Shown here: positions 3,557 to 48,267 of the stretch, piece after piece
How positions within the stretch are numbered: position 1 is the stretch's first letter
Layout of the letters: each line of letters opens with the position of its first letter
Assembly: GCA_030549815.1 (NCBI GenBank)
Contig: JAUQQQ010000001.1
Location: 90,873-154,872, forward strand
Length of the DNA: 64,000 bases
Reading direction: 5' to 3'
Source: a bacterium
GTDB taxonomy: Bacteria > DRYD01
Program-made: the position numbers and the translations under genes
Notes under the pieces: generated by a model
Database searches by the model: none
What the model saw: the letters and a program-made list of their open reading frames with translations, nothing else
What the model was told of the DNA's origin: nothing

Positions 3557-5071
3557 TCATAATTTCTCCCACCGATAATTCATTTTTCTTTTTTTCATAT
3601 CAAAATTCATCCCACATATTATTACTTCACCTTCCAACGCATACTTCCCATAATATTCCCTATCCCTTATTTGTTCTATCGCTTTTTCCTCATCCTTCCC
3701 TACCTTTACTTCAAATATGTATATCTTCCTGTTTGGTGTTCTTACCATTATATCAATTCTTCCTAATTTAGTATGCAATTCTGCATTACATTCAAAACCC
3801 GTTGAATATAAATACACATACAAAAACGACTTTATACTCTTTTCATCACTCCCATATAAATCATATGGTATATTCTCCAACAATCTGTTTATCATGTATT
3901 CTATCTCTTCTAAATCAACATTTTCCAATGCTTTCCTTATTGGATTTATCTCACTATCTTCTCCTCTCCACTCTCTTACAAATTCTCTTAACACATTCTC
4001 ATTAAAACTTATCTGTACTTCCTTATTTGGATATCTCAATTTATAAAAATTCCTATCATACTCTTCTTTTACTTTGTCTATTGTTAAGTATCCCGTTTGG
4101 AACATTAATGCTTCTATACTTATTTTCTCTACATCCACTCTATTCAAATCTTCTTCTGACATCATTAACTCCACATTTGGCATCTCATATTTTTTCTCTC
4201 TTATCAGTTTTATCAATACCTCTGGATTACCTGTCTCATACCAATAACTGCTTTTTTTTCTCTCCTGAAAATACAATAACACATCGAATGGATTGTATAT
4301 TTTACTTCCCAACCACCAATACCCATTATACCACTCTCTTATTTCTAACAACTCTTTTTCACTTTCTATTATTTCCCCAAACACTTCCTCCAATTCCCTT
4401 TCTGTATACCCACATATATCTCCATATTCTTTACTCAAGCTTATATCTCTTAATTGATTTAGTCCACTAAAGAGTGATACTTTTGCAAATTTACTTATCC
4501 CTGTTATAAATACAAAACGTAAATACTGGTCTAAACCCTTTATCGTCTGATAAAATCCTTTCAACACTTCTCTTATTTCTTCCGCTATTCCACTCTTCTC
4601 TATATTATCCAATATCGGCTTATCATATTCATCTATTAACAACACTACTTTTTTTCCTGTCTTTTTGTTTATCTTATAAATTAATTCTGACAGCATTGAA
4701 TAATATAGCTCTTCCTCTATTTCTACTTCATAATTCTTACTCCAAAATTTTATTATCGATTTAATATACCTCTTCATTTCTTCTTTGTTTTCTACCTTCC
4801 CTCCATCAAATGAAAACCTTACCACTGGATACTTTTCTCCCCAATTCCACTTCTTTTCCAAATACAATCCTTCAAATAATTCTTTTTTCCCTTCGAATGC
4901 ACATCGCAATGTATCTACAAACAAGCTTTTCCCGAACCTTCGAGGACGTGATAAAAAATAATATTCTCCTCCTTCTACTAATTTTTTTACAAAACTCGTC
5001 TTATCTACATAATAATATCCCCCTGTCCTTATCTTTTCAAAACTACTTATTCCTATTGGCAATCTCTTCAT
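3557..5071 (-). CDS. AAA-ATPase-like domain protein with C-terminal PD-(D/E)XK nuclease-like domain (PF09820-like + PDDEXK)
   Basis: Family hallmarks are the N-terminal MKRLPIGISSFEKIR..YYVDKT motif and FLSRPRRFGKS. The C-terminal GRIDIMV...IFEVK motif is PD-(D/E)XK-like. The preferred start is ATG 5071, with GAAGGGG 8 nt upstream. Confidence 0.8.
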   Translation of the reverse strand: MKRLPIGISSFEKIRTGGYYYVDKTSFVKKLVEGGEYYFLSRPRRFGKSLFVDTLRCAFEGKKELFEGLYLEKKWNWGEKYPVVRFSFDGGKVENKEEMKRYIKSIIKFWSKNYEVEIEEELYYSMLSELIYKINKKTGKKVVLLIDEYDKPILDNIEKSGIAEEIREVLKGFYQTIKGLDQYLRFVFITGISKFAKVSLFSGLNQLRDISLSKEYGDICGYTERELEEVFGEIIESEKELLEIREWYNGYWWLGSKIYNPFDVLLYFQERKKSSYWYETGNPEVLIKLIREKKYEMPNVELMMSEEDLNRVDVEKISIEALMFQTGYLTIDKVKEEYDRNFYKLRYPNKEVQISFNENVLREFVREWRGEDSEINPIRKALENVDLEEIEYMINRLLENIPYDLYGSDEKSIKSFLYVYLYSTGFECNAELHTKLGRIDIMVRTPNRKIYIFEVKVGKDEEKAIEQIRDREYYGKYALEGEVIICGMNFDMKKRKMNYRWEKL

Positions 5072-5088
5072 CCTACACACCCCTTCTC

Positions 5089-5409
5089 TTACCTATATCT
5101 CTCTACTTCCATCTTTTTCACTCTCCTTCCCCTACTATCTATAACTATTCCCACTAAATATATCTCTTCTCTATCCTTATACTTCTCATGATATCTCTTC
5201 TCTTTTATTTGTTCTATTGCTTCCTCCCTATCCACCTTCATCTCTATTATATACACCTTACCCCTATTTATCACCGTTAAATCTATTCTCCCTATACTTG
5301 TCACATCTTCCACTATTACTTCTAATCCACTTGACACCAACAACACATAAAACAATGCACAATAAAAACTCTCATATCTACCCACATCTCTATACCACAT
5401 ATTTGGCAC
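5089..5409 (-). pseudogene. Detached C-terminal PD-(D/E)XK nuclease-like fragment of the second paralog
   Basis: GRIDLTVINRGKVYIIEMKV...EAIEQI parallels the C-terminus of the 3557-5071 gene. It is separated from the N-terminal part (5477-6622) by a frame break. Confidence 0.55.
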
Positions 5410-5476
5410 ACTTCCATATTTAATACATTTTCCAATTCTAACAATTTACCATCAACAAATATCTTCCTTACTTCTC

Positions 5477-6622
5477 TTACCCCCAACTTTTTCCTGACCA
5501 AATACTACTTCCTATATAACTATTTAATGCTACTTTTACCTCTTTGTTCGGATAGCACAATCTATACTCTAACCAATCTTCTTCTATCATCTCTTTTATT
5601 GTCAAATATCCTGTTTGAAATAATAACGCTTCTATCCTTATTTCTTCTATATCAAACATATCTAATACATTATCATCTACTACTACTTCTTCTAAATTCG
5701 GTATATAGTACCCCTTCTCCCTCATAACTTTTACTAAAAATTCTGGGGTGGGGTCCCCTTCCCCTGGATTACCCGTTTTAAACCAATACGACCTATATAC
5801 TCTATTTTCCATATACAACAACACATCAAATGGATTATATATCCTTGAACCTAACCAATAATACCCATTGTACCACTCCCTTATTTTCTCTAATTCTTCC
5901 TTCCCTTCTATTAACTCTCCAAATACCTTTAATAATTCTTCCTCTGTATACCCACATATATCTCCATATTCTTTACTCAAGCTTATATCTCTTAATTGAT
6001 TTAGTCCACTAAAGAGTGATACTTTTGCAAATTTACTTATCCCTGTTATAAATACAAAACGTAAATACTGGTCTAAACCCTTTATCGTCTGATAAAATCC
6101 TTTCAACACTTCTCTTATTTCTTCCGCTATTCCACTCTTCTCTATATTATCCAATATCGGCTTATCATATTCATCTATTAACAACACTACTTTTTTTCCT
6201 GTCTTTTTGTTTATCTTATAAATTAATTCTGACAGCATTGAATAATATAGCTCTTCCTCTATTTCTACTTCATAATTCTTACTCCAAAATTTTATTATCG
6301 ATTTAATATACCTCTTCATTTCTTCTTTGTTTTCTACCTTCCCTCCATCAAATGAAAACCTTACCACTGGATACTTTTCTCCCCAATTCCACTTCTTTTC
6401 CAAATACAATCCTTCAAATAATTCTTTTTTCCCTTCGAATGCACATCGCAATGTATCTACAAACAAGCTTTTCCCGAACCTTCGAGGACGTGATAAAAAG
6501 TAATACTTACCTTCTTCCTCCAACTTTTTTACAAAATGTGTCTTTGGGGTAGGGGTCCCCCAATTTTCTACATAATAATATCCTCCTGTTCTTATCTCCA
6601 TAGAGGGACCCCTACCCCACAA
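5477..6622 (-). pseudogene. Disrupted paralog of the AAA-ATPase-like/PD-(D/E)XK gene (N-terminal ATPase-like part), carrying GC-rich mini-insertions
   Basis: Near-identical to the 3557-5071 protein over its FLSRPRRFGKS...YNGY region. The ancestral ATG (~6673) reads into a stop after an inserted GGGGTAGGGGTCCC element. Further in-frame insertions encode NWGTPTP and GEGDPTP. Confidence 0.6.
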
Positions 6623-6882: not shown

Positions 6883-9699
6883 TTATCTTCTTAAAGTATC
6901 ATATATCCTATATTCATAGCCTCTATACCTTATAGATGCGCTTTGGAGGAAACTAATGTTGAAAAGTGAAGGATCATAGAAGAAATCTACTTTACTCGTG
7001 CCCTTTATCCCAACATTACCCTTAGTTACAACCATTCCACTAAACCATAATCGATTGTTATTACCCGTTATTGCTTTCAGATTCCCACCAACCATTATTA
7101 AACCATTTAATTTAACATCGGTCCCTAATATTTGCTCGTTAGCCTTCCCCCTCTTTTTCTTTTCTTTTTCCATTTGCTGCTGCCCCTGTTGCTGATCCTG
7201 CTGCGTAGTAGATTGATCACTATTTTCTGTAACAAGCCCAGATATAAAATTTAAAGCAGAAGCAAAATCAGAATCAGTAATACTACTGTTAATACTACTA
7301 TATGAACTTGAAACATCAACAGCTATAGTACCTTCATCCGTCGAAGCATTTCCAGTATTAGACAAATTTCCTACATGCAAGTTGACAGAAGGAATATTAA
7401 TATTAACATACAGAATTTTTACTTTACTTTCGCTATCATCATTAACTTCTTCCACTTCCAATTTTATTGTATTAACACTATCATAAAATAAAAGAATAAA
7501 GTCATTAAGCCCATCTCCATCCTGAATATCTATTTTTGAAAAAGTCATACTACCACTATTATTTTTAAGATATTCATAAACAGTGTTAAAAACAGTGTTA
7601 AATTCATTTGTGTTTGACCCACTACCTCCACTTGTTCCACCACCACTTGTTCCTCCACTTGTTCCACCACCACTTGTTCCTCCACTTGTTCCACCGCCAC
7701 CTGCAAAACCTTCACTAAGTGGGTTAATGTATAGGTTATTATCGGCTAAGATAGCGACGTTTTGGTAGCCCTGATAAACTTGGCTAAACCTTGCAATTAT
7801 ATCCCCCTGTTTAACCTGCCCACCTACAGCACTATAATCTTTTGTTTTTAAAGTTCCACTTTTACTATCATAATTATATGATTGCCAATAATTAGTAACA
7901 TTATTATCATAATAAACTGGGGCAATATAGTTAGTTACGTTTAAAGAATCGTTAGAAGAGTCCTTAGTAGCTACTAAAGCTCCTCCACCTTCCTCATCAG
8001 TCTTAACTATTCCATCAATAACAATCGCTCCTTTGTCATACCACAAAACCGAACCATTATCTATCTTAACCCCTACATCAATCTTTCCAAACCTATAATC
8101 ATCTACACTACCATCACTTCTATATTGAGCTTTCCAGGAAGTAATATGGATAAACTTTCCCTGATCATTTTTTTGACCATCTATTTGATCACCTATTTTG
8201 GTATCCTTTTTAACAACGAGGTTCCATTTTTCGGCATATATTTCATTTCCCACAATGCTTGTATTGTATATTTGGACTCCACCTGGTGTTATCTTTGCTT
8301 TGCTTGTGTCTATAGTTCCATCACTTTTAACAACTTGCTTTAGATAGTTATCAATTTGAGTATAACTAACATCTGGTGGGAAATATACAACAGTATTTTC
8401 ATTTACAAAAACATAATATCCTGCATTTAACTGTGCATATGATCCAGGAGTAAATTTAGAGTTAATTTCGTTAATCAATGCTTTTCGCGAGCTATCAAAA
8501 CCGGATTCTATTGTTTTATTTACAAACTCTGCACCAATAAAGTCTTTTATTTGGTTGTATTTATTTTGATCATATTTAATAGCATTAGGATCTGTTCCAT
8601 CTATCATCGTATAAATTGTCTTACCATATTTGAAACTATTACCACTATTAGTTTTAGCAATCACTTCTCCTCTAAGCCCGCCATATTCAGCTTGAAAATT
8701 TCCATTACTATCTTGCTTAACAGTGTAAAATTTTGTAGTTTTGTGATCAGCATTAAGTTTTATATCAAACGTATTAGAATAGAATCTATTATTAACTCTA
8801 TTACTATCATAGGTTCCGACTTCTAAATTAGAATCGATAATAGTGGATCCTTCAGAAACCAGGGATCCACCTAGGGAAAACCCTGCATTAGCAAAAGATT
8901 GATTAATATAGGTTATAACATATCTTTGTGAAGCTGGAACTTTTGAGTATCCAAGAGCCATTATCATCAATGTATTCTGCCCAACTTTTCTACTACCATT
9001 AACATTAATTTCTTGATCTGCAAATGAGCGGTTGTATGAAGAGTACAAAGGCAATCTTCCATTCGTAGCAGACAAAGATAGTTGATTATTATCAAAATCT
9101 ACAAATATTGTGTTAGCTTCATCACCATAATAGGCGTTATTAGAATTGGTTGAATTACCAAAAAATATAACGCTTCCACGCTCTGTTATAGGTAAATTAG
9201 GTTTCCAAAAAACAACAACAGCTCCATTTTTACCTGCAAGATTATTAATTGAAATATCATTAGGTATTCCGGTTCCTCCTTGAACATTGCCATTAGATTG
9301 CCTAATTATCCATCCACTTTGAGTTGTATCTGCTAAATTTATTATAGCAATATTATAAGCCAGGGTGACATTACCAAAGTTGCTAAAGATTTTTCCTATT
9401 TTAGTTGAAGGATTATTTAAAGAGGGAAAAGTTATGGTATTTATGCTACTTGTGCCGCTTCCCGAACCTGTTATAGATTGGCTTGGTGTATTAAGCATAA
9501 AAGATTCAGGAGAGTGACTTATAAGAAAAGTAAGGATTTGAATAGCATCTTCCGCATTATTCATTGCTTCCTGACGAGCAAAGTAATCTTTATTAGTTTT
9601 AAAATTATTTTGTGTTAATCCAAATAGAGCGACTGACATCATTATGAGAACCACTATAAAGAATAATGTGCTTAGTAATAGGACACCTTTTTTATTCAT
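6883..9699 (-). CDS. Large (938 aa) membrane-anchored surface protein with PilX_N-like N-terminus and Gly/Thr/Ser repeat linker
   Basis: N-terminal TM helix followed by TQNNF...ARQEAMNNAEDAI, which resembles the PilX_N pattern of A..AE.G. after a TM segment. An internal GGTSGG tandem repeat is present and the body is Asn/Ser/Thr-rich. Confidence 0.45.
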   Translation of the reverse strand: MNKKGVLLLSTLFFIVVLIMMSVALFGLTQNNFKTNKDYFARQEAMNNAEDAIQILTFLISHSPESFMLNTPSQSITGSGSGTSSINTITFPSLNNPSTKIGKIFSNFGNVTLAYNIAIINLADTTQSGWIIRQSNGNVQGGTGIPNDISINNLAGKNGAVVVFWKPNLPITERGSVIFFGNSTNSNNAYYGDEANTIFVDFDNNQLSLSATNGRLPLYSSYNRSFADQEINVNGSRKVGQNTLMIMALGYSKVPASQRYVITYINQSFANAGFSLGGSLVSEGSTIIDSNLEVGTYDSNRVNNRFYSNTFDIKLNADHKTTKFYTVKQDSNGNFQAEYGGLRGEVIAKTNSGNSFKYGKTIYTMIDGTDPNAIKYDQNKYNQIKDFIGAEFVNKTIESGFDSSRKALINEINSKFTPGSYAQLNAGYYVFVNENTVVYFPPDVSYTQIDNYLKQVVKSDGTIDTSKAKITPGGVQIYNTSIVGNEIYAEKWNLVVKKDTKIGDQIDGQKNDQGKFIHITSWKAQYRSDGSVDDYRFGKIDVGVKIDNGSVLWYDKGAIVIDGIVKTDEEGGGALVATKDSSNDSLNVTNYIAPVYYDNNVTNYWQSYNYDSKSGTLKTKDYSAVGGQVKQGDIIARFSQVYQGYQNVAILADNNLYINPLSEGFAGGGGTSGGTSGGGTSGGTSGGGTSGGSGSNTNEFNTVFNTVYEYLKNNSGSMTFSKIDIQDGDGLNDFILLFYDSVNTIKLEVEEVNDDSESKVKILYVNINIPSVNLHVGNLSNTGNASTDEGTIAVDVSSSYSSINSSITDSDFASALNFISGLVTENSDQSTTQQDQQQGQQQMEKEKKKRGKANEQILGTDVKLNGLIMVGGNLKAITGNNNRLWFSGMVVTKGNVGIKGTSKVDFFYDPSLFNISFLQSASIRYRGYEYRIYDTLRR

Positions 9700-9912: not shown

Positions 9913-11763
9913 ATGTCAAAAACAAATCTTCCAAAGGGATTTTCTTCTCCAGATGAAATAAAAACAATCATAGCCACCGATTGTGGTTCAACTACTACCA
10001 AAGCAATATTAATCGAAAAACAACCAAATGGAGAATACCGATTAACAACCAGAGGAGAAGCACCTACTACAGTTGAAGCTCCATTAGAAGACGTAACAAT
10101 AGGAGTATTAAACGCTTTCAGAGAAGTACAAGAATTAAGAAACAAGAAAATTTTAACAGATGATTACAAAAATTTAATAAAGCCGGATAATGGTAAAGAA
10201 GGGGTTGATATATACGTTTCTACATCGTCAGCAGGTGGCGGTTTACAAATGGTCGTTGCAGGAGTCGTCAAAGAAATGTCTGCAGAAAGTGCCCAAAGAG
10301 CAGCATTAGGTGGAGGAGCAATCGTCCTCGATACCTTCGCAGTTAATGATGGTAGAAAACCATTCGAAAGAATAGAAAAAATAAGAGAACTTAGACCAGA
10401 TATTATCTTACTAAGTGGAGGAACAGATGGTGGCACAGTTAAACACGTTGTTGAAATGGCTCAATTAATAGCAGCAGCAAAACCTCAACCAAGACTAGGC
10501 CTAACCTACCAACTACCCGTCATTTTCGCAGGAAATAAAAAAGCAACAGACGAAGTATCAAGAATACTATCGAAAGTCGTTGAACTTAGGATAACAGAAA
10601 ACTTACGGCCTACCTTAGATGAGGAAAACCTTCAACCCACAAGGTTAATAATCCAAGATTTATTCTTAGAGCACGTAATGGCACAAGCACCAGGATATAA
10701 AAAACTAATGGAAATGGTAGATGTAGAAATAATGCCAACTCCAGCAGCAGTAGGACTTATAATGCAAAAAATATCACGAAAAAACAATATAAACTTAGTT
10801 GGAGTAGATATAGGAGGGGCAACCACAGACGTTTTCTCCGTAATTAAACAAGACGAAGAATGGGTATTCAATAGGAGCGTCAGCGCAAACTACGGAATGA
10901 GTTATTCAATAGCACAAGTCCTCAAAGACGCAGGAATAGAAAACGTATTACGATGGATACCATTTAACACAAATATCGTCCAACTAAGGAATGCCATAAA
11001 AAACAAAATGATAAGGCCAACAACAATACCCTACTTACTTAAGGATTTAATGATAGAACAAGCAATATGTCGAGAAGCCCTGCGACTATCTTTTGATCAA
11101 CACAAATTACTCGCTGTCGGATTAAAAGGAAAACAAAAAGAAAGGAGTATTTCTGACGCCTTTAGTCAAACAGAAAGTGGAGAAACAATAATAGATATGT
11201 TTGAATTAGATATGATAGTTGGAAGTGGAGGAGTTTTATCACATGCACCAAGACGAAATCAAAGCGCAATGATGATGATAGACGCATTCGAACCTTATGG
11301 ATTTACATTATTAACAGTCGATAGCATATTTATGATGCCACATTTAGGAGTGTTATCAACAGTTCATGAAAAAGCAGCAACCGAAGTATTCGAAAAAGAT
11401 TGTTTAGTATACTTAGGCACATGTATAGCACCAGTCGGAAAAGAAAAAGATGGCATAAAAATAATGGAAGCAGAAGTTATTGATCTCGATACAAATCAAA
11501 AATACGATGTCGAATTATTAGCAGGGGAAATAAAAGTAGTACCAATAAGAGGAAATGCAAAGATAAATATAAAATACTTGCATAAAAAATTTAAACTATC
11601 AAAAGAAGGAAAAGTAGAATCAAAAGAGGTAAGGGGCGGAGTTGTAGGGTTGATATTTGACGGAAGAGGAAGACCCTTAGAATTACCTAAAAATGACTCC
11701 GAAAGAAAAGAAAAATTAAATCAATGGTTCAAAAGTATAAACATGTATCCAGAAAATAAATAG
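9913..11763 (+). CDS. ASKHA (actin-like ATPase) superfamily protein, hydantoinase/oxoprolinase-like or GlmL/MutL-like
   Basis: Two phosphate-binding motifs are present, DCGSTTTKAIL near the N-terminus and VGVDIGGATTDVF near residue 298, with a Gly-rich adenosine motif near the C-terminus. Confidence 0.4.
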   Translation: MSKTNLPKGFSSPDEIKTIIATDCGSTTTKAILIEKQPNGEYRLTTRGEAPTTVEAPLEDVTIGVLNAFREVQELRNKKILTDDYKNLIKPDNGKEGVDIYVSTSSAGGGLQMVVAGVVKEMSAESAQRAALGGGAIVLDTFAVNDGRKPFERIEKIRELRPDIILLSGGTDGGTVKHVVEMAQLIAAAKPQPRLGLTYQLPVIFAGNKKATDEVSRILSKVVELRITENLRPTLDEENLQPTRLIIQDLFLEHVMAQAPGYKKLMEMVDVEIMPTPAAVGLIMQKISRKNNINLVGVDIGGATTDVFSVIKQDEEWVFNRSVSANYGMSYSIAQVLKDAGIENVLRWIPFNTNIVQLRNAIKNKMIRPTTIPYLLKDLMIEQAICREALRLSFDQHKLLAVGLKGKQKERSISDAFSQTESGETIIDMFELDMIVGSGGVLSHAPRRNQSAMMMIDAFEPYGFTLLTVDSIFMMPHLGVLSTVHEKAATEVFEKDCLVYLGTCIAPVGKEKDGIKIMEAEVIDLDTNQKYDVELLAGEIKVVPIRGNAKINIKYLHKKFKLSKEGKVESKEVRGGVVGLIFDGRGRPLELPKNDSERKEKLNQWFKSINMYPENK

Positions 11764-38246: not shown

Positions 38247-38702
38247 ATGTCAGAAAAAAGGACTTCTATAACAGAACATTTTTCTAACATACTTCATTAC
38301 CTTCAAAAAGTAGATGAAGAAATAAAAAACAATCAAAAAATAGAGGAAATAAGAGAAAAATACAAACTAAAAGAATTAGAAGAAGGAATTAGAACAGATA
38401 TAGAACAAATAGAAGAAATGCTACAAGAGACTTTAGAAAAAAAAGAAGATGATGAAAACAATGAAAATTTGAGTGAAGAAGTAAAAAATGTCATATTAGC
38501 AATGGATGAAGCTGCTATCGACATACATGAACATTTTCTTAACATAGCACAACTTTTTTTAGAATATATCAATAATTTTAATAGTGAAATCTTAGAATCG
38601 ATAAAAGAAAAAATTAATGAAGGAGTAATAAAATTAGAAGAAATGCAAGAAATAAACAAAAAGTTAGAAGAAATTATCAATTACAAAAAATATGAAGCAT
38701 AA
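38247..38702 (+). CDS. Hypothetical acidic coiled-coil protein
   Basis: 151 aa, E/K-rich and helical. Overlaps the ruvC start by 11 nt. Confidence 0.4.
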   Translation: MSEKRTSITEHFSNILHYLQKVDEEIKNNQKIEEIREKYKLKELEEGIRTDIEQIEEMLQETLEKKEDDENNENLSEEVKNVILAMDEAAIDIHEHFLNIAQLFLEYINNFNSEILESIKEKINEGVIKLEEMQEINKKLEEIINYKKYEA

Positions 38703-40540: not shown

Positions 40541-41854
40541 ATGAGATTTATAGGAAGGATAGAACATTTTGGAAGCCTTATATATGATACAGAAAGAAAA
40601 GAATACATACCGATAGATCAAGACGGAACTAACATAATTCTTAATGTATCTTCTAACGTTGACCTAGAAACACTTTATTACAAATATTTTTCACATAGAT
40701 TTAGTTATCTTAATTTTAAAAGTTTCTTACAACTAATACAGTCAATAGAAATGATAGATAAGGACTATAATTCTAACGTTGTTTTTTTAGAAAACTCTGA
40801 TTTGGAATTTTTTTTGAATAATAAATTCATTTCTGCTCCTTTAAAAGTTCATATTGCTCTTACATACGAATGTCATCTAAAATGTAGGCACTGTTTCTCT
40901 AATTCTGGTAAAAAAAGTGAAGAAGAAAAAAATTCAGAATTATCACCGGAAAAAATTATGGAATTTTTAGATGAAATAAAAGAAAATGGTGTATTTTACG
41001 TTTCATTTGGAGGAGGAGAACCATTCTTGAAAAAAGAATTCATAGAAATACTAAAAAAAGCAAATCAGAATAAAATGAATATTTCCATTTCCACATCACT
41101 AAGCAGTATAAACGCAAAGCAAATCATAGAAACAATGCAAAAAGAGAATATAAAAATTCAGGAATTCAAAATATCTGTGGAGGCAGTAAATTCAAAAGAA
41201 TACACCAATGTAAGAGGAAAAAATCTATTTGAAAATCTAAAGAACAATTTACAATTAATAATCAATTATAAAAAAGAAAATGATACTTTTATTAGATTTT
41301 CATTTGTTCTTAACAAACAAAACTATAGTTTTTTACCTAATTTTCTAAGTTTTGCAGAGCAATACAGTGCTGACGGATTAGTATTCTATCCAATTTACAA
41401 CGTAGGAAGAGCACAAGAACATCCTGAATCATTCCTTACAAACCAAGAATTAGAAAAAATTCAAAGGATGATTAATAACATGAAAGAAAGAACAAAAATA
41501 GAGATAGAATTTTTTAATATTCCCCTAAAATTCGGTAAAAACGGTTTGTATAACAATTTTGGATGTGGATGTGGTAAGACAACTATTTACTTAGATCCTT
41601 ACGGTAATATCCTACCTTCAGGAATGTTTATTAAATATGGTAGCAAATTTTCATTAGGTAATATAAAGGAAAAAAAATTCAAAGAAATATGGAAAGAAAA
41701 TGTAGAAAAAGAGCTCAACAAAATTGAAGCTGATCCTAAATGTAACAATTGTATGTATTTTGAAGAATGTAAAGGCGGATGTATGTTTAGATCTTTTGAT
41801 AAATATCAAAAATTATCTTATAAAGACCCCACTTGTACAATCAATCCCTTATAA
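40541..41854 (+). CDS. Radical SAM enzyme with C-terminal SPASM domain and N-terminal RRE-like extension (peptide-modifying maturase-like)
   Basis: CHLKCRHC is the CX3CX2C radical-SAM cluster motif, with GGGEPF (SAM glycine motif). The C-terminal CGCGK...CNNCMYFEECKGGC Cys-rich region is SPASM-type. About 100 aa precede the core and resemble PqqD/RRE (GSLIYDTERKEY...DGTNIIL). Confidence 0.75.
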   Translation: MRFIGRIEHFGSLIYDTERKEYIPIDQDGTNIILNVSSNVDLETLYYKYFSHRFSYLNFKSFLQLIQSIEMIDKDYNSNVVFLENSDLEFFLNNKFISAPLKVHIALTYECHLKCRHCFSNSGKKSEEEKNSELSPEKIMEFLDEIKENGVFYVSFGGGEPFLKKEFIEILKKANQNKMNISISTSLSSINAKQIIETMQKENIKIQEFKISVEAVNSKEYTNVRGKNLFENLKNNLQLIINYKKENDTFIRFSFVLNKQNYSFLPNFLSFAEQYSADGLVFYPIYNVGRAQEHPESFLTNQELEKIQRMINNMKERTKIEIEFFNIPLKFGKNGLYNNFGCGCGKTTIYLDPYGNILPSGMFIKYGSKFSLGNIKEKKFKEIWKENVEKELNKIEADPKCNNCMYFEECKGGCMFRSFDKYQKLSYKDPTCTINPL

Positions 41855-41857
41855 TCT

Positions 41858-42454
41858 ATGAAAGAAAATATTTATATTATTTTACAAGACATAAATTTTC
41901 TTATAGAAAAATTAGAAAATCAAGAAACTAATGAAGAATTACAAAATATAATTAAGGAAGCAAAAAGTATTATAAACCAAATAAATAAAGCGTTAGAAGA
42001 GAATAATGAAAAAGAAATCTACAAAAAACTCCTTGAATTAAAAGTTTTAGAATTTAAAATAATATTCCAAGAGGTAAAGGAAACAAATTTTTACAAATTC
42101 TGGGAAACTCTCATTAACAACATAAAAAAAAATATGGTAACCAGTGAAGAGCTTTATGAATTTTATAAGAACGAAATGAATAAACTCTTAATAAATGCTG
42201 AAATAATTTCTAACATATTAATCTTAGAAGATGAAGATATTGTATTTAGGACTATATTAGACATAATGTTTGGTGAAGCATTTAAAAGTTACTATCAAGT
42301 ACTTCAAAAATTACATGAATATATATTCAAAAATAATCCCTCGCTTTTAGATGAAATAAAGGAAGATTTGCCATTGGTAATCTTCTATTTTTTACAAATA
42401 CAAAAGCTAATCCCTGAAGAATATTCAGAAAACGTGGAAAGGTTATTAGAATAG
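41858..42454 (+). CDS. Hypothetical acidic helical protein (co-oriented with rSAM gene)
   Basis: The ORF starts 4 nt after the rSAM stop. No motif found. Confidence 0.45.
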   Translation: MKENIYIILQDINFLIEKLENQETNEELQNIIKEAKSIINQINKALEENNEKEIYKKLLELKVLEFKIIFQEVKETNFYKFWETLINNIKKNMVTSEELYEFYKNEMNKLLINAEIISNILILEDEDIVFRTILDIMFGEAFKSYYQVLQKLHEYIFKNNPSLLDEIKEDLPLVIFYFLQIQKLIPEEYSENVERLLE

Positions 42455-42455
42455 T

Positions 42456-43298
42456 ATGAAAAAAGTAGTAGGATTCATTGGGTTATGTAAAAATGTTGGA
42501 AAAACAACCTTTCTTAATAAATACATAAAAGAAAAAGAAAAGTATTTAATAACGAGTATAGGATGGGATGGAGAAGCAATTGATCATATTTTTGGAATAA
42601 AAAAACCATCCATATTCGTAAAAGAAGGTTCATCTGTTTGTACTTATAGCAATCTAAAACCTACAAAATCAGAAAAAATATCAGAGTTACCTATAGAAAA
42701 TCAGTTTTTAGGTAAATTGGAGATATACCGAATGAAAGAAAACGATATAGTTCAGGTAGCAGGTCCTTCTTCAATTACACAACTTAAAACTTTTCTAAAA
42801 TTTGCCGAAAATTTAGAAATCAGCGAAATAATAATTGACGGAGCTGCCGATAGAAGAATAACCCTTTCAGTTTCAAACGAAATTTTTTATATATGTGGGC
42901 CAACATATTCACAAAATGAACAAAAATTAATTAGAACAATAATTGGAATCATCGAAATGTTTAATATACCTATTATGGAACATGGTCAACAATTTATAGA
43001 AATAAAATCAATCAACAAAACAAATATCAACACATTGGATGAAAACCAAAAATATTTAATTGAAGATTTTAGTAAAATAGTTATGGATTATGAATTAATA
43101 CCAAAAGTTTTAAAAAAATTCAAGATATTTGTAAAAAAGAAACCTGAAAAGTTAAACATTGTAATCAATTCGTTTAATGCAGACCTTATGAAACACACTT
43201 TAAATACATTAAAAATAAAAGAGGAAGTAGGCCAGTTAATTGGTAGCACTAATATCATAGAGATTATAGAGCTTAATGTTAACACCTCTACACTGTAA
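42456..43298 (+). CDS. P-loop NTPase, possibly dethiobiotin-synthetase/CobQ-like fold
   Basis: GLCKNVGKTT is a Walker A near the N-terminus. IIIDGAADRR around residue 125 resembles the DTBS VEGAGG segment. It starts 2 nt after the previous stop. Confidence 0.4.
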   Translation: MKKVVGFIGLCKNVGKTTFLNKYIKEKEKYLITSIGWDGEAIDHIFGIKKPSIFVKEGSSVCTYSNLKPTKSEKISELPIENQFLGKLEIYRMKENDIVQVAGPSSITQLKTFLKFAENLEISEIIIDGAADRRITLSVSNEIFYICGPTYSQNEQKLIRTIIGIIEMFNIPIMEHGQQFIEIKSINKTNINTLDENQKYLIEDFSKIVMDYELIPKVLKKFKIFVKKKPEKLNIVINSFNADLMKHTLNTLKIKEEVGQLIGSTNIIEIIELNVNTSTL

Positions 43299-43346: not shown

Positions 43347-43371
43347 AAAGGGAGGGCATGCCCACCCTTTC
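43347..43371. terminator. Bidirectional terminator hairpin between convergent genes
   Basis: aaagggagggcatgcccaccctttc is a near-perfect GC-rich palindrome centred on gcatgc, flanked by A/T runs. It lies between convergent stops at 43298 and 43412. Confidence 0.5.
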
Positions 43372-43411: not shown

Positions 43412-43942
43412 TTAAACCAAAGTACTTCCACCTCGGTAAAGGGGTGATGACCAACTACCTCCACCTCGGTATGCCAAAACTGTCATTTCAGAATAATCAC
43501 TATGGAAATATCCCCAACTATCACCAAAATTACTTACGAAGTTAGAAAAGCTCATTGAAAAATTTGAAGCAAAGTTCATGGTAGATTGATAAAATCCACT
43601 CATGTTAGAAACAAGGGAATTAAATGAGTTATTTAAGAAGTTTGCTCCAAAAGAAAAAGATGATATAGCGTTAAAACCAGCATTCGCAATATTATTAACA
43701 TTCAAATTATTAACTATATTGTTGAAATTAAAAGAATTAAAAGATGCTTGCATTATGTTTGAAAAGCTGCTGTTAGAAATATGCATGCTATTAAAATTAA
43801 TGTTCTTAAAATTGAAATTATTGCTGCTAACAAACTTATCTTTTATTTTTTGCTTAAACGAGAAATGGACATTATTCTTGTTCATCTTAAAATGCGTCTT
43901 CATTGCACACATGTTATGTCCTAATCCTTTTATCTTGCACAT
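43412..43942 (-). CDS. Asn/Ser/Phe-rich low-complexity repeat protein (candidate RiPP precursor or structural protein)
   Basis: Strong SD AGGAGGTG lies 8 nt upstream of ATG 43942. 176 aa with a basic N-terminus (MCKIKGLGHNMCAMKTHFKMNKNN..) followed by dozens of F-x-S/F-x-N/N-F-N triads. No signal peptide. C-terminus YRGGGSWSSPLYRGGSTLV. Confidence 0.6.
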   Translation of the reverse strand: MCKIKGLGHNMCAMKTHFKMNKNNVHFSFKQKIKDKFVSSNNFNFKNINFNSMHISNSSFSNIMQASFNSFNFNNIVNNLNVNNIANAGFNAISSFSFGANFLNNSFNSLVSNMSGFYQSTMNFASNFSMSFSNFVSNFGDSWGYFHSDYSEMTVLAYRGGGSWSSPLYRGGSTLV

Positions 43943-44134
43943 ATAAATCACCTCCTATTAATAATATAAAAAAATAGTTTAGAAAAGGTATAAAACTTCG
44001 AATTGTTTTACAAAATTTTTACATGCTTTCCTGAGCTTTTTTTACATTATTTTTAACATTTTTTTTACATTTTATTTTTATCTTTTCTAACTTTTTTAGC
44101 ATTTACGTTATTTTGTCAAAAAATTAACAAGAAA

Positions 44135-46392
44135 CTAAAAACTCCAGTTTAATCCCAGAAAAATACTCTTTTTATAGCCAGGATACCTTGTCATAGGACG
44201 AGATAAATCTAAACTAAGTGGACAATCATATTTTGTATTAAATAAGTTATTAACGTAAAGAGTAAAATATTTATTTTGGTCGATATAATAACGTAAGGTT
44301 AAATTTGCGAGCCAATATGATTTTATTTTTTTCTCTGGTTCTGGAAAAACACCTTGACTTACCAACCAAGCCCAACCATCACTATTTATTAACCTCCTGT
44401 AATCATCAACTAAAACATCTGAAGTATATTTTAATTCAAAAGCAACAGATAAATTATTTGTAATATTTTGTCCATATTTTGCAAGTAGCAATAATTTAGG
44501 GGAATTTGGCAAGTATTCAAATATACCAGGAATTCCCTTAGTTACTCTAACGTTAGAATATGAAGCAGAAAATCTAATAAATTTTCTATGAGAAAACTGA
44601 TAAACATAATCTAAAAAAGCCCCTGTACTTTCTAAATTTCCATAACTTTTAAATACAAGCACACTTTCATCATAAGAAGCATCACCTGTAGTATCCGCTA
44701 AAGCACTATACTCATTTATTAGATTAGTTATCTTTGTAGAAAATACAGAAAAAGTAAAATAACTATTAACGTTTCTTTTTTTATATTCAGAATAGTATAT
44801 TAACTCCAGTGTTCTATGTCTTTCCGGAAATATTGATATGTCTTCGTTGGGTGCAAGATAATAACTCCACGTTCCATTTTCAATAACTTCATTGAAAAAT
44901 GGGAATCTTATATTTTGGGAATATATCAACTTTATAGCTTTATTATCCTTAATTTTCTTAATTATACCTATATTTGGAATAACTGCTGGTTTCGCATAGA
45001 TATTTTTTATTTGAAAAACATATCCTGTGCTAGTTACCTGGGAAAAGTTTTTATACATATTGGAATAATCATCATATCTTGCCCCTAAAGCTAAAATTAA
45101 ATCGTCCTTCAAATAATAATCCATATGAAAATACAAGGAAAAAAGGTTAAAGTATCTTTTCCCATTTACAAATTCAATTACAATATTCCTTTCTAAAGGG
45201 TTCAAATCTGAGTATAAAGATTCATAGGTATTAAATGAAAAACTCGATCTTTTCCATTCTAAACCCATCAACAATTCCCCTTTTTTAAATTTATAATAAA
45301 AATCATTTTCTACGGAAAAAATGTTATTTTTAAGCGAAGACACTGCCATACCCCAGTAACCAAGAATCATATTTGAAAAATTCGGTTCATAAACAGCTTC
45401 CTGATGTACACCATAAGAATAATAAGATAACTTTGTTATTATTTTTGAATTAGATGAAAGGTTAAACTTTCTTTCATAAAAAATAAACCTATTTCTATCA
45501 TTCCCAAACGAATAAGGGCTATTTATAAGATAAAAATACCCGCGGGATGGAAAATGATACCTCGATTGATAATCTATATATCCAAATTTTTCCGCTTCAT
45601 TATACAAGTAAAGAGCAAAATTAGAAGAGTAAGATCTATCAGAATAGTATAATCTATCATCTATTACAAAACCAAAATTAGGCAATGTAAAATCATTTAT
45701 GATTTTTTCTCAGGAAAGAAAATTTCTCTACCTTTGTAATTAACAAAATCCCACGACAAACTAAAATAATAATTACCAATTTTTTTATTAATCATGAATC
45801 CATTGTTGTTATTGATTTTATTATCATAGAAACTAAAATAACTATAGGTTTTGAAAACAGTATCCTTATAATAATCATCTTTATAGTACTTAAAGGATGG
45901 TATTAGATTTATTGTAGCAAGTAATGAATTGCTTCCAAAGTACACATTTGAATATCCATGGACTATCTCCAAAGCATGTACATAATTAGAAGGAATATTA
46001 ATAGGATATCCAGAGAAATAATTGTTTATTTGGTATCCATCAAATAAGAATAAAGATCTGGAGTTTATTGAGCCCGGTATTTGTATACCTCTATTTCCCA
46101 GGGACCAGTAAGTACCGTTATCTATAACATACAAACCTGGAGAAAAGTTTAGCAACGTTTTTAAATCAGGGTAATAAAAAAATCTTAGCTCCAAAGGCTG
46201 AACTAAAGATATAGTAGCAGCTGACTCTAATACACTCTTTGTGTATTTTGTAGAACTTTGAACAGTATTTATAAATTCTGTCTCCTCCATTATATATTCC
46301 TTATCATCTATCTCAGAAAAAGAGCTTTTTATACATATAAGAAAAAACGATAAAATAAAAATTAATGTTCTCAACTTTATAACCAACTTCAA
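44135..46392 (-). pseudogene. TonB-dependent receptor (plug + beta-barrel) interrupted by a frameshift in an A7 homopolymer
   Basis: The 45697-46392 ORF has a signal peptide and plug domain (NIPSNYVHALEIVHGYSNVYFGSNSLLATINLIP). The 44135-45685 ORF is the barrel, ending ...LGLNWSF. The frames overlap at the gagaaaaaatca tract (45703-45709) and ±1 nt fuses them. Confidence 0.65.
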
Positions 46393-47335: not shown

Positions 47336-47656
47336 TTATATATTATCTTCCAGAAATTTAATTAATTCTTTTTTAGATATAAAGCCAACAATATTATTAA
47401 CAACTTTTCCATTTTTGAAAAGTAGTAAGGTTGGTATTCCACTTATGTAATATCTTTGTGCTATTTCTATATTATCGTCGGTATTAATTTTGACGAATTT
47501 CACTTTTCCTTGATATTCTTTAGCAACTTCTTCGAAGATTGGTTCAAGCATTTTACAGGGCATACACCATGGAGCCCAAAAATCGACCAATACAGGAACA
47601 GGACTATTTAAAACTTCATTTTCAAAAGTATTCTGTCCTACATGAATTACAGCCAT
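47336..47656 (-). CDS. trxA: Thioredoxin (variant CMPC active site)
   Basis: VLVDFWAPWCMPCKML with typical Trx fold length (106 aa) and cis-Pro region GIPTLLLF. Confidence 0.8.
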   Translation of the reverse strand: MAVIHVGQNTFENEVLNSPVPVLVDFWAPWCMPCKMLEPIFEEVAKEYQGKVKFVKINTDDNIEIAQRYYISGIPTLLLFKNGKVVNNIVGFISKKELIKFLEDNI

Positions 47657-47748: not shown

Positions 47749-48267
47749 CTATTTCTTTTTTTCAGCCATTTGCATAATTTTATCTTTAACAATATTATAT
47801 ATACCTCCTCCTATTGTGGCTCCTAATATTCCGCCTATAGGACCCCCTAACATAGCTCCAGCAGTTGTCAATAATGCAATATTAAAGAAATCTATAACAC
47901 CATGTTTTACTCCATCCAATCCCTTAAGAACTCCACCCAAACAAGCTACTTTCATTCTATTTTCTTTGTCAACGCCAACATCCTTAGCTGCAAGGTAACT
48001 ATTTATAGCTCCACTAAAAGCACCATATCCCATAACTAAAAATGGATAATAAATGCCCGACGCCAAGGTAAGAGTTCCTTTTAACATACCCTTTGCAAAA
48101 GAATCAAGAGTGCTTCTTTCATATCTATCCGCCTCAATACTTACTTCTTTTTTACCTTTCGGCCCTTTAATAAGCATGCTTTTCTCTTTTATCTCAACAA
48201 AATCATTTAAACCTTTTTTCTCTACAGATAATATTTCAAATTTTTGATTGATTTTATTAACTTCCAT
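47749..48267 (-). CDS. Hypothetical protein with C-terminal glycine-zipper membrane segment
   Basis: The C-terminal GAMLGGPIGGILGATIGGGIY is a GxxxG repeat. The N-terminal domain is soluble. Confidence 0.45.
   Translation of the reverse strand: MEVNKINQKFEILSVEKKGLNDFVEIKEKSMLIKGPKGKKEVSIEADRYERSTLDSFAKGMLKGTLTLASGIYYPFLVMGYGAFSGAINSYLAAKDVGVDKENRMKVACLGGVLKGLDGVKHGVIDFFNIALLTTAGAMLGGPIGGILGATIGGGIYNIVKDKIMQMAEKKK

Follow-up and report, generated by a model that had tools for sequence, protein, structure and literature searches.

Does an open reading frame (ORF) that is rich in asparagine, serine and phenylalanine, carries a long run without charged residues and occurs in a single species-level lineage represent a working gene, and if so, what could its product do? 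This question is raised by a 64,000-nucleotide stretch of bacterial DNA (contig JAUQQQ010000001.1 of assembly GCA_030549815.1, forward-strand positions 90,873 to 154,872), referred to below as the window, in which an ORF of 176 codons and a stop lies on the minus strand at 43412-43942, with its ATG at 43940-43942 and its stop codon at 43412-43414. An initial annotation had described the product as consisting almost entirely of N/S/F triads and had proposed, among other roles, that of a substrate in the biosynthesis of a peptide that is made by the ribosome and modified after translation (RiPP). In this article, the ORF is judged from sequence evidence, with fairly good confidence, to be a real translated gene, most likely one that is taxonomically restricted at the species level. 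Its product, termed here the orphan protein, is tentatively regarded as a charge-free amphipathic-helix protein that may bind membranes or self-associate, acting as an accessory component and not as the substrate of a neighbouring radical SAM enzyme.

The most non-random feature of the orphan protein is a run of 94 residues (47-140) without D, E, K or R, the longest uncharged run in the window, where the second-longest comprises 49 residues in a membrane protein. Such a run has a probability of 1.8e-12 at the amino-acid frequencies of the window and of 1.3e-8 for random codons of the same base composition. Asn, Ser and Phe together make up 48.3% of the whole protein and 64.5% of residues 37-146, so that the value of roughly 60% given in the initial annotation holds for the core and not for the entire protein; the accompanying claim of an extreme composition is borne out by the best 60-residue stretch, whose 68% N+S+F is the maximum among the ORFs of the window, typical proteins of which contain 7.1% N, 6.2% S and 6.2% F. 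The supposed triads, or F-x-(S/N) periodicity, were not recovered. Fourier analysis gave essentially zero spectral power at period 3.0 for Phe or hydrophobic positions (p 0.59-0.96), F-x-[SN] is not enriched (11 observed versus 8.4 expected from composition, p=0.13), and the sole motif of this type with a mild enrichment is [SN]-F-[SN] (10 versus 4.3 expected, p=0.005). Cysteine occurs just twice, at the N-terminal positions C2 and C12 as initially described, and C12 is replaced by Tyr in one allele.

The possibility that the ORF is merely repeat DNA, which had been raised together with the annotation, finds no counterpart in its nucleotide sequence. Tandem Repeats Finder (TRF) detected no meaningful array in the ORF, just two tiny arrays of ~2 copies, and a repeat search within the N/S/F domain returned short two-copy direct matches only. 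Because TRF found no meaningful array and the sole notable DNA repeat is a 19-nucleotide pair in the tail (a direct repeat of family D4 with 89% identity, at 43420-43438 and 43453-43471 within 43420-43471, minus strand, encoding YRGG(G)S), the domain is interpreted as low-complexity protein sequence, not as expanded repeat DNA. As a separate observation, the second most N/S/F-rich ORF of the window (38333-38680, minus strand) runs antisense to the Glu/Lys-rich p151 gene as its shadow; since the shadows of K/E-rich genes in this genome are rich in Ser, Phe and Leu, calls based on composition should be made with caution.

Several lines of evidence argue that the ORF is a gene and not an antisense artefact, in agreement with the view first taken of it. 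The Shine-Dalgarno (SD) sequence AGGAGGTG (43949-43956, minus strand) is separated from the ATG by a 6-nucleotide spacer and is the same in every allele, and its GGAGG core ends 8 nucleotides ahead of the ATG, the distance originally reported. GGAGG occurs at 80 sites in the window, 15 of which precede ORFs of at least 60 amino acids. The context ATAGGAGGTGA is identical at the orphan ORF and at the gene for HU (start ~37902), and similar GGAGGTG sites lie ahead of the genes for p172 and for proteins of 803 and 938 amino acids.

Four alleles, all of them intact, were identified in the window and on related metagenome contigs. The product has 176 amino acids in the window, 177 in L094/L095 (from Logan and NCBI GCA_041640495.1), 171 in L001-L003/L017 (from JGI, ENA and Logan) and 171 in L093 (from ENA). 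Every indel among them is a multiple of 3 nucleotides, with length changes of +3 and a net -15 nucleotides, and the N/S/F domain shows no repeat-number difference, which favours a gene over repeat DNA. Codons 1-130 differ across the alleles by five synonymous and five non-synonymous changes, the latter mostly conservative, and the L093 allele carries C12Y, A13S, V25I and S70Y. The C-terminal part is far more variable and occurs in two tail types: the L094/L095 allele equals that of the window over residues 1-157 and then continues with the tail AYHRGGGTWSSPLYRGGSALV, and the type-B tail reads ...IRDGGIWPKLWGK. From codon 131 to the end, the two tail types differ by 19-20 non-synonymous and 3 synonymous changes and by 6-7 gapped codons; a stop-free run of 45 random codons at the composition of the orphan ORF would be expected with P ~0.02 per allele.

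The opposite strand carries an L/K-rich ORF of 114 amino acids at 43602-43946 (plus strand), which is judged to be a shadow and not a gene. No SD sequence was seen ahead of it by inspection, and it spans only residues 1-113 of the minus-strand ORF, opposite its Tyr-free part. The two ORFs share third codon positions, and therefore substitutions look equally benign on both strands; in keeping with this, the substitutions that distinguish the window from L001 did not by themselves tell the two ORFs apart. The minus strand was chosen as coding because in L093 a stop codon splits the plus-strand ORF into 44 and 63 amino acids, the same mutation appearing on the minus strand as S70Y.

Database searches placed the orphan protein outside every known family, and its sequence family is new. 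Sequence searches against Pfam, NCBIfam, PHROGs, PADLOC and the PDB gave no match, nor did a scan of GTDB genomes, and neither a word-indexed search across 5.8 billion clustered proteins nor a complete HMMER pass over 1.84 billion representative proteins recovered anything beyond the gene's own alleles. A metagenome scan with the product of a KamB-like neighbouring gene recovered 76 loci, among which the orphan gene was present on same-species contigs only. The kind of gene is a known one: an orphan of low complexity, confined to one taxon, that encodes an amphipathic helix and occupies a slot prone to recombination. As its host we identify a hot-spring bacterium resembling the Calescibacterota, whose lysyl-tRNA synthetase (LysRS) is 84% identical to that of a Candidatus Calescibacterium sp. 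metagenome-assembled genome (MAG) and 75-83% identical to those of other MAGs, and the GC content is 29%. The relatives found by the LysRS scan showed no synteny with the orphan locus. Members of the Calescibacterota (Calescamantes, EM19) are flagellated and inhabit circumneutral streamer communities of Yellowstone at ~80 °C (PMC4791363; PMC11696919), and metatranscriptomes exist for hot springs of this type (PMC11696919).

In terms of architecture, the orphan protein can be divided into a basic N-terminal region, the charge-free domain with a predicted helix, and a variable tail. The N-terminal region (residues 1-46; 43805-43942, minus strand) contains 10 Lys and 1 Asp, and its residues 13-36 alternate between hydrophobic and basic residues with a beta-type moment of 0.45-0.51; no hydrophobic core of a signal peptide is visible by inspection in this Lys-rich segment, as had been stated initially. 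It is followed by the Asn/Ser/Phe-rich low-complexity domain (residues 47-140; 43523-43804, minus strand). Overlapping the end of this domain, a 50-residue amphipathic alpha-helix is predicted for residues 97-146 (43505-43654, minus strand) from the helical moment, which is 0.332 compared with 0.094 +/- 0.048 in shuffled sequences (0 of 5000 reach it), and from a hydrophobic period of 3.6 (pointwise p=0.0005, global p=0.02). The nonpolar face of the helix reads GALSFLMFYTFAFFFVFSWF and is rich in F, L, M, V, W and Y, and the polar face reads SFNNNSSSGQNSNMSNSDGY, consisting of S, N, G and Q with one Asp and no Lys, Arg or Glu. The type-B allele retains a helical moment of 0.309, its F132Y and F135L changes leaving hydrophobic positions hydrophobic. 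The hypervariable Gly/Arg/aromatic tail (residues 147-176, ...AYRGGGSWSSPLYRGGSTLV; 43415-43504, minus strand) is the most divergent part between strains and ends in the window with YRGGGSWSSPLYRGGSTLV, the terminus already recorded in the initial annotation.

The charge-free-faced helix, the polybasic N-terminus, the Arg/Trp/Tyr tail and the lack of a signal peptide are the basis for reading the orphan protein as a peripheral membrane-binding or self-associating protein. It would remain on the cytoplasmic side, where the aromatic face of the helix would, by analogy, bind the membrane surface or self-associate, assisted by the basic N-terminal region and by the Arg/Trp/Tyr tail with its interfacial residues, and the function would be accessory and strain-variable. 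Motifs of 20-40 residues in eukaryotic proteins, known as ALPS motifs, offer a likeness in physical chemistry. The ALPS lipid-packing-sensor motif is an amphipathic helix with bulky hydrophobic residues and a nearly charge-free polar face of small residues (PMC4569407). Like the ALPS helices of ArfGAP1, GMAP-210 and Nup133, the predicted helix is long and amphipathic, with a bulky hydrophobic or aromatic residue at every third or fourth position and a nearly uncharged polar face of small polar residues, and the ~3.6-residue periodicity, for which ALPS motifs call for at least 20 residues, extends over residues 97-146. Unlike them, it is 50 residues long and embedded in a 94-residue charge-free domain, and no sequence homology exists.

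A number of points weigh against this reading. The membrane-binding step is pure analogy, and Asn occupies places in the helix where ALPS motifs typically have Thr. Asn-rich proteins are chemically labile near 80 °C, the temperature at which the host lives. Set beside charged helices that other proteins of the window contain, a moment of 0.33-0.36 over 50 residues is not extreme. No use can be made of the structure model: AlphaFold2, run on an alignment of two alleles, gave a predicted local distance difference test (pLDDT) score of 33, with strands at residues 14-20 and 25-31 at pLDDT <50 and a helix at 97-136 that was given no weight because its pLDDT is only ~35. As regards the gene itself, the synonymous-codon score of the orphan ORF lies 1.6 standard deviations below expectation, the codon log-likelihood that separates real from shadow genes is intermediate for both strands, and the evidence of constraint amounts to ~10 substitutions because the gene is known from one species-level lineage only.

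The main null explanation is that the ORF is young or functionless, a de novo or scrambled frame that arose recently in a recombination-prone intergenic slot and, whether translated or not, carries no selected function. It would account for the recovery of nothing other than the gene's own alleles from the 5.8 billion clustered and 1.84 billion representative proteins, for the intermediate codon statistics, and above all for the behaviour of the locus. What lies between the TonB receptor and the KamB-like gene varies among related genomes: the slot is empty in L015, where thioredoxin directly follows the operon and leaves no space for the orphan gene, and it holds an unrelated 48-residue ORF in L014 and an M24 peptidase in L016. 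The region is also a mosaic of recombination blocks. The window and L001 differ by 0-4 positions per 300 nucleotides from 53148 down to ~47450 (LysRS, CdsA, PFOR, p172 and thioredoxin), and beyond this point, compared as far as 42318, they are 3-7% divergent (SBP-like protein, TonB receptor, orphan ORF and KamB-like gene), so that the sharp boundary near 47450 implies a recent recombination of the receptor block. Within the divergent block, the first 390 nucleotides of the orphan ORF and ~190 nucleotides upstream of it are the least divergent part, and nowhere in the locus do the strains diverge more than in the tail together with the downstream intergenic DNA.

A further sign of turnover is an extra cassette of ~0.8-1 kb that other strains carry between the TonB receptor and the orphan gene and that has been deleted in the window with no obvious consequence, which may likewise be counted for a functionless ORF. 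The product of the cassette is a small protein rich in Arg, Gly and Trp, with 94, 140 or 144 amino acids (p94, p140 and p144; P0016, P0017) and its gene at L001:9156-9440, at L093:5698-6117 on the minus strand and at L094:3583-4017; in-frame insertions and a Tyr-to-stop change set the versions of the protein apart. In these strains, a copy of TGT[T/A]AAAATAATGTAAA stands at either end of the cassette. The alignment shows the deletion junction in the window at 44041-44058 (minus strand); because one copy of the repeat remains and the cassette is gone, it appears to have been lost by deletion between 18-nucleotide direct repeats. Downstream of the TonB-receptor operon, the cassette also contains a GATAAT array that resembles a Fur box, with three tandem copies of GATAATTTATT at L001:9626-9658 and L094:4203-4235 and two copies in L093; a search of the window for related GATAAT patterns gave nothing above chance.

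The cassette protein shares a C-terminal motif, R-G-G-G-x-W, with the orphan protein, and in p140 of L093 the likeness extends to R-G-G-G-x-W ... Y-R-G-G-x-V. The tail of p140 in L093 ends in ...IRGGGNWDYRGGNV, comparable to the end of the orphan protein in the window, p94 of L001 ends in ...CRGGGRWA, and p144 of L094 ends in ...RGGGRWA. AGA/CGA and GGA/GGG codon differences leave the residues unchanged, which is an argument that the tail is read as protein, and the comparison suggests that a tail module has been exchanged or diversified between the orphan gene and the cassette gene. The two genes have in common the strain-variable slot after the TonB receptor, A/T repeats upstream, a strong-SD style and the C-terminal module; their N-terminal bodies are unrelated, that of p94/p140/p144 being rich in Arg, Gly and Trp rather than in Asn, Ser and Phe. 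A tail motif kept at the protein level in two different genes through synonymous codon changes speaks against a functionless frame, as do the SD sequence, which is as strong in type as that of HU, the survival of the frame through several in-frame indels, the run of 94 uncharged codons, which is unlike AT-rich random sequence (P ~1e-8), and the coherent helical amphipathicity kept between alleles. The null explanation is on balance considered unlikely.

The main functional rival regards the orphan protein as a self-assembling scaffold, amyloid-like or condensate-forming, in which Phe residues act as stickers, Asn and Ser as spacers and the tail as an RGG-type element, in the manner of FG-nucleoporins, FUS or the NFGAIL segments of IAPP. 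The N+S+F content of 64.5% in residues 37-146, the 94 uncharged residues, the YRGGG and YRGG motifs of the tail beside Trp and Tyr, and segments such as SSFSFGANFLNNSFNS, which resemble the amyloid core of IAPP, all count in its favour. The Asn/Ser/Gly/aromatic composition and the NNFGAILSS-type segments are similar to those of the functional amyloids CsgA and FapC and of IAPP. In the manner of Q/N-rich prion-like and FG-type domains (Sup35, FG-nucleoporins, the prion-like and RGG regions of FUS), the protein is uncharged, Asn-rich and studded with aromatic residues, with an RGG-type tail after this region. Low complexity of the N/S/F type is seen as well in a protein of a related MAG that presumably carries a lytic-transglycosylase (SLT) domain, and this may be added to the points in favour.

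The sequence criteria of Q/N-rich prion-like domains and of secreted amyloids, by comparison, place the orphan protein outside these two groups. A Q/N-rich prion-like domain is operationally defined by 30 or more Q+N within 80 consecutive residues with few hydrophobics; the orphan protein reaches a maximum of 26 N+Q per 80 residues, and 38% of residues 37-146 are strongly hydrophobic (F, I, L, V, M, W or Y). The periodicity over residues 96-146 is helical (3.6) and not that of a beta-structure (2.0), no homology to prion-like or FG-type domains was found, and the host is a bacterial hyperthermophile. The Sec signal, imperfect repeats and dedicated export genes that characterize CsgA and FapC, and hence a secreted functional amyloid of the curli or Fap type, are missing here, the absence of curli- or Fap-type export genes referring to the neighbouring genes examined. 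A scaffold of this sort is considered quite unlikely; the amyloid-like, phase-separating and envelope-filler roles named in the initial annotation are conceivable.

The protein of the related MAG mentioned above (L007:12954-13940, minus strand) has 328 amino acids; its N-terminus is rich in N, S and F (MMNFNYSNFSFNFTNTSFNFSSISISNF...), it contains two hydrophobic segments dominated by Gly and Leu as well as GGFPNM repeats, and motifs in its C-terminal region are those of what we take to be the SLT domain. It indicates that N/S/F-rich low complexity is present in bona fide proteins of the lineage. A weak tblastn match in L007 was rejected as a homologue of the orphan protein on the ground that it is compositional.

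Two further proposals involve the radical SAM operon that converges on the orphan gene. The radical SAM/SPASM gene (40541-41854) lies 1.6 kb from the orphan gene and encodes an unclassified protein with an N-terminal extension of ~100 amino acids; all 68 of its NCBIfam matches, among them MftC, PqqE, StsB, WgkB and DynA, fall below their cutoffs, the best being MftC with 140 bits against a cutoff of 265. Together with acidic p198 and the KamB-like P-loop protein (126.7 bits, the cutoff being 210), it forms a set at 40541-43298 on the plus strand, with counterparts at L014:8001-10727, L015:8001-10753 and L016:8001-9964. Relatives keep the operon at 55-73% identity, as the trio in L014 and L015 and as a pair of the radical SAM gene and p206 in L016, and as an orphan system this set may hold more interest than the orphan gene itself.

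According to the broader of the two proposals, the N/S/F protein and p94/p140/p144 constitute a new family, defined by the quickly diversifying R-G-G-G-x-W ... Y-R-G-G tail that they have in common, and this tail is either the core of a new RiPP class or the Arg/aromatic partner in an FUS-like scaffold of stickers, spacers and RGG that assembles at ~80 °C; in its RiPP form, the trio of radical SAM/SPASM enzyme, p198 and KamB-like protein would mature the tail, and the low-complexity body would serve as an unusually long leader. It is regarded as highly improbable. The narrower one, that the orphan protein is a RiPP precursor in which the adjacent enzyme would cross-link aromatic-x-polar triads in the way known from triceptides or darobactin, or else the tail with its R-G-G-G-x-W / Y-R-G-G motif, is a fainter prospect still. 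It draws on the proximity of a radical SAM/SPASM gene with sub-cutoff matches to peptide and cofactor maturases, on the tail motif common to two adjacent small proteins, and on the precedent of radical SAM enzymes by which the Trp, Arg or Lys of a short motif is cross-linked (PMC11851443, PMC9055067). The aromatic and Asn/Ser-rich sequence near such a gene also resembles the radical SAM/SPASM RiPP precursors of the triceptide, darobactin/dynobactin and streptide types. It departs from them in that its triads are unenriched and period 3 is missing, in its length of 176 amino acids, far above that of a typical precursor, and in its orientation, the orphan gene and the radical SAM gene being convergent and in separate operons. 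The putative core would be the tail, which is the least conserved part and has lost GGG in type B, and no PqqD or RiPP recognition element domain was detected at E<0.01. Because the operon is kept in L014, L015 and L016 where the orphan gene is not present, the RiPP role put forward initially is poorly supported. In L014, which represents the closest other species, the slot ORF (10773-10919, minus strand) encodes 48 residues rich in Gly, Ser and Ala with a bacteriocin-like look (MVGSVEGVISSSLGDSLSIMAGGSVGMAIGTASNILCMASSYRQGTRF); it was rejected as a homologue of the orphan tail, as there was no BLASTP alignment and no real DNA similarity.

That the plus-strand ORF (43602-43946) is instead the real gene and the minus-strand ORF its shadow is scarcely credible, in spite of a composition more typical of the genome, equally intermediate codon log-likelihoods and the shared third codon positions that make the few substitutions look equally synonymous on both strands, since besides lacking an SD sequence and being split by a stop in L093, the plus-strand ORF begins directly after the site of Tyr118, which is the earliest Tyr in the minus-strand ORF, the minus-strand frame stays conserved for another 190 nucleotides beyond it, as do the N/S/F composition and the helix, and by the derived codon geometry of the two frames plus-strand stops fall opposite Tyr codons, or opposite His/Gln codons after a T-ending codon, a rule that S70Y fits.

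If the preferred reading of a functional charge-free amphipathic-helix protein holds, a deep-branching hyperthermophile would maintain a protein in which 18% of the residues are Asn and a domain of 94 residues is free of charge, a composition usually considered ill-suited to ~80 °C, and ALPS-like uncharged amphipathic helices, so far mainly a eukaryotic concept, would exist in bacteria. The locus also provides a compact example of orphan-gene turnover, combining the loss of a cassette between 18-nucleotide repeats, the exchange of a tail module and in-frame indels. Its importance is nevertheless modest, given that the gene is a species-restricted accessory gene with no testable pathway link.

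With respect to its genomic setting, the orphan ORF is co-oriented with the genes for p172, thioredoxin, an SBP-like protein and the TonB receptor and lies 192 nucleotides downstream of them, consistent with the initial placement at the 3' end of this gene string, and it is convergent with the operon of p151, RuvC, NfeD, radical SAM/SPASM, p198 and the KamB-like protein. Between the convergent genes lies a GC-rich palindrome, AAAGGGAGGGCATGCCCACCCTTT (43347-43370), which forms a hairpin in the minimum free energy fold and is likely to be a bidirectional terminator; it is also present in L094, and no counterpart was aligned in L001, where the two stop codons sit 36 nucleotides apart. Upstream of the ORF, an A/T-rich tandem repeat with a unit of ~11 nucleotides (ATGTAAAAAAA, 3.6 copies; 44036-44086, minus strand) is a candidate for regulatory or curved DNA, and the same type of A/T-repeat sequence precedes the p94/p140/p144 gene in other strains. 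A scan for sigma-70-type promoters gave no match above shuffle expectation, and scanning the window for Rfam families and tRNAs yielded no hits.

Some neighbouring genes deserve brief mention. The TonB-dependent receptor gene (44135-46392, minus strand) is broken into ORFs of 231 and 516 amino acids by a 1-nucleotide homopolymer deletion at 45703-45708, with A6 in the window compared to A7 in L001 and L094, where the receptor is intact at 750 amino acids; the frameshift may be phase-variable, may mark a pseudogene or may stem from faulty assembly. The first gene of the same string, p172 (47749-48267, minus strand), has a strong SD sequence and encodes glycine-zipper-like C-terminal segments (GGPIGGILGATIGGGIYN); its product has no family match and is 100% conserved between strains.

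Elsewhere in the window, two tandem paralogous genes on the minus strand (3557-5080 and 5477-6622), the second apparently truncated or degenerate, have the look of what we assume to be an AAA-ATPase plus PD-(D/E)XK type, and they coincide with the strongest GC-skew excursion of the window (-0.67 at 4001-6000). A further gene (6883-9699, minus strand) encodes a protein of 938 amino acids with a pilin-like hydrophobic N-terminus and a (GGTSGG)n repeat of Gly, Ser and Thr, which is probably a large secreted or pilus-associated protein.

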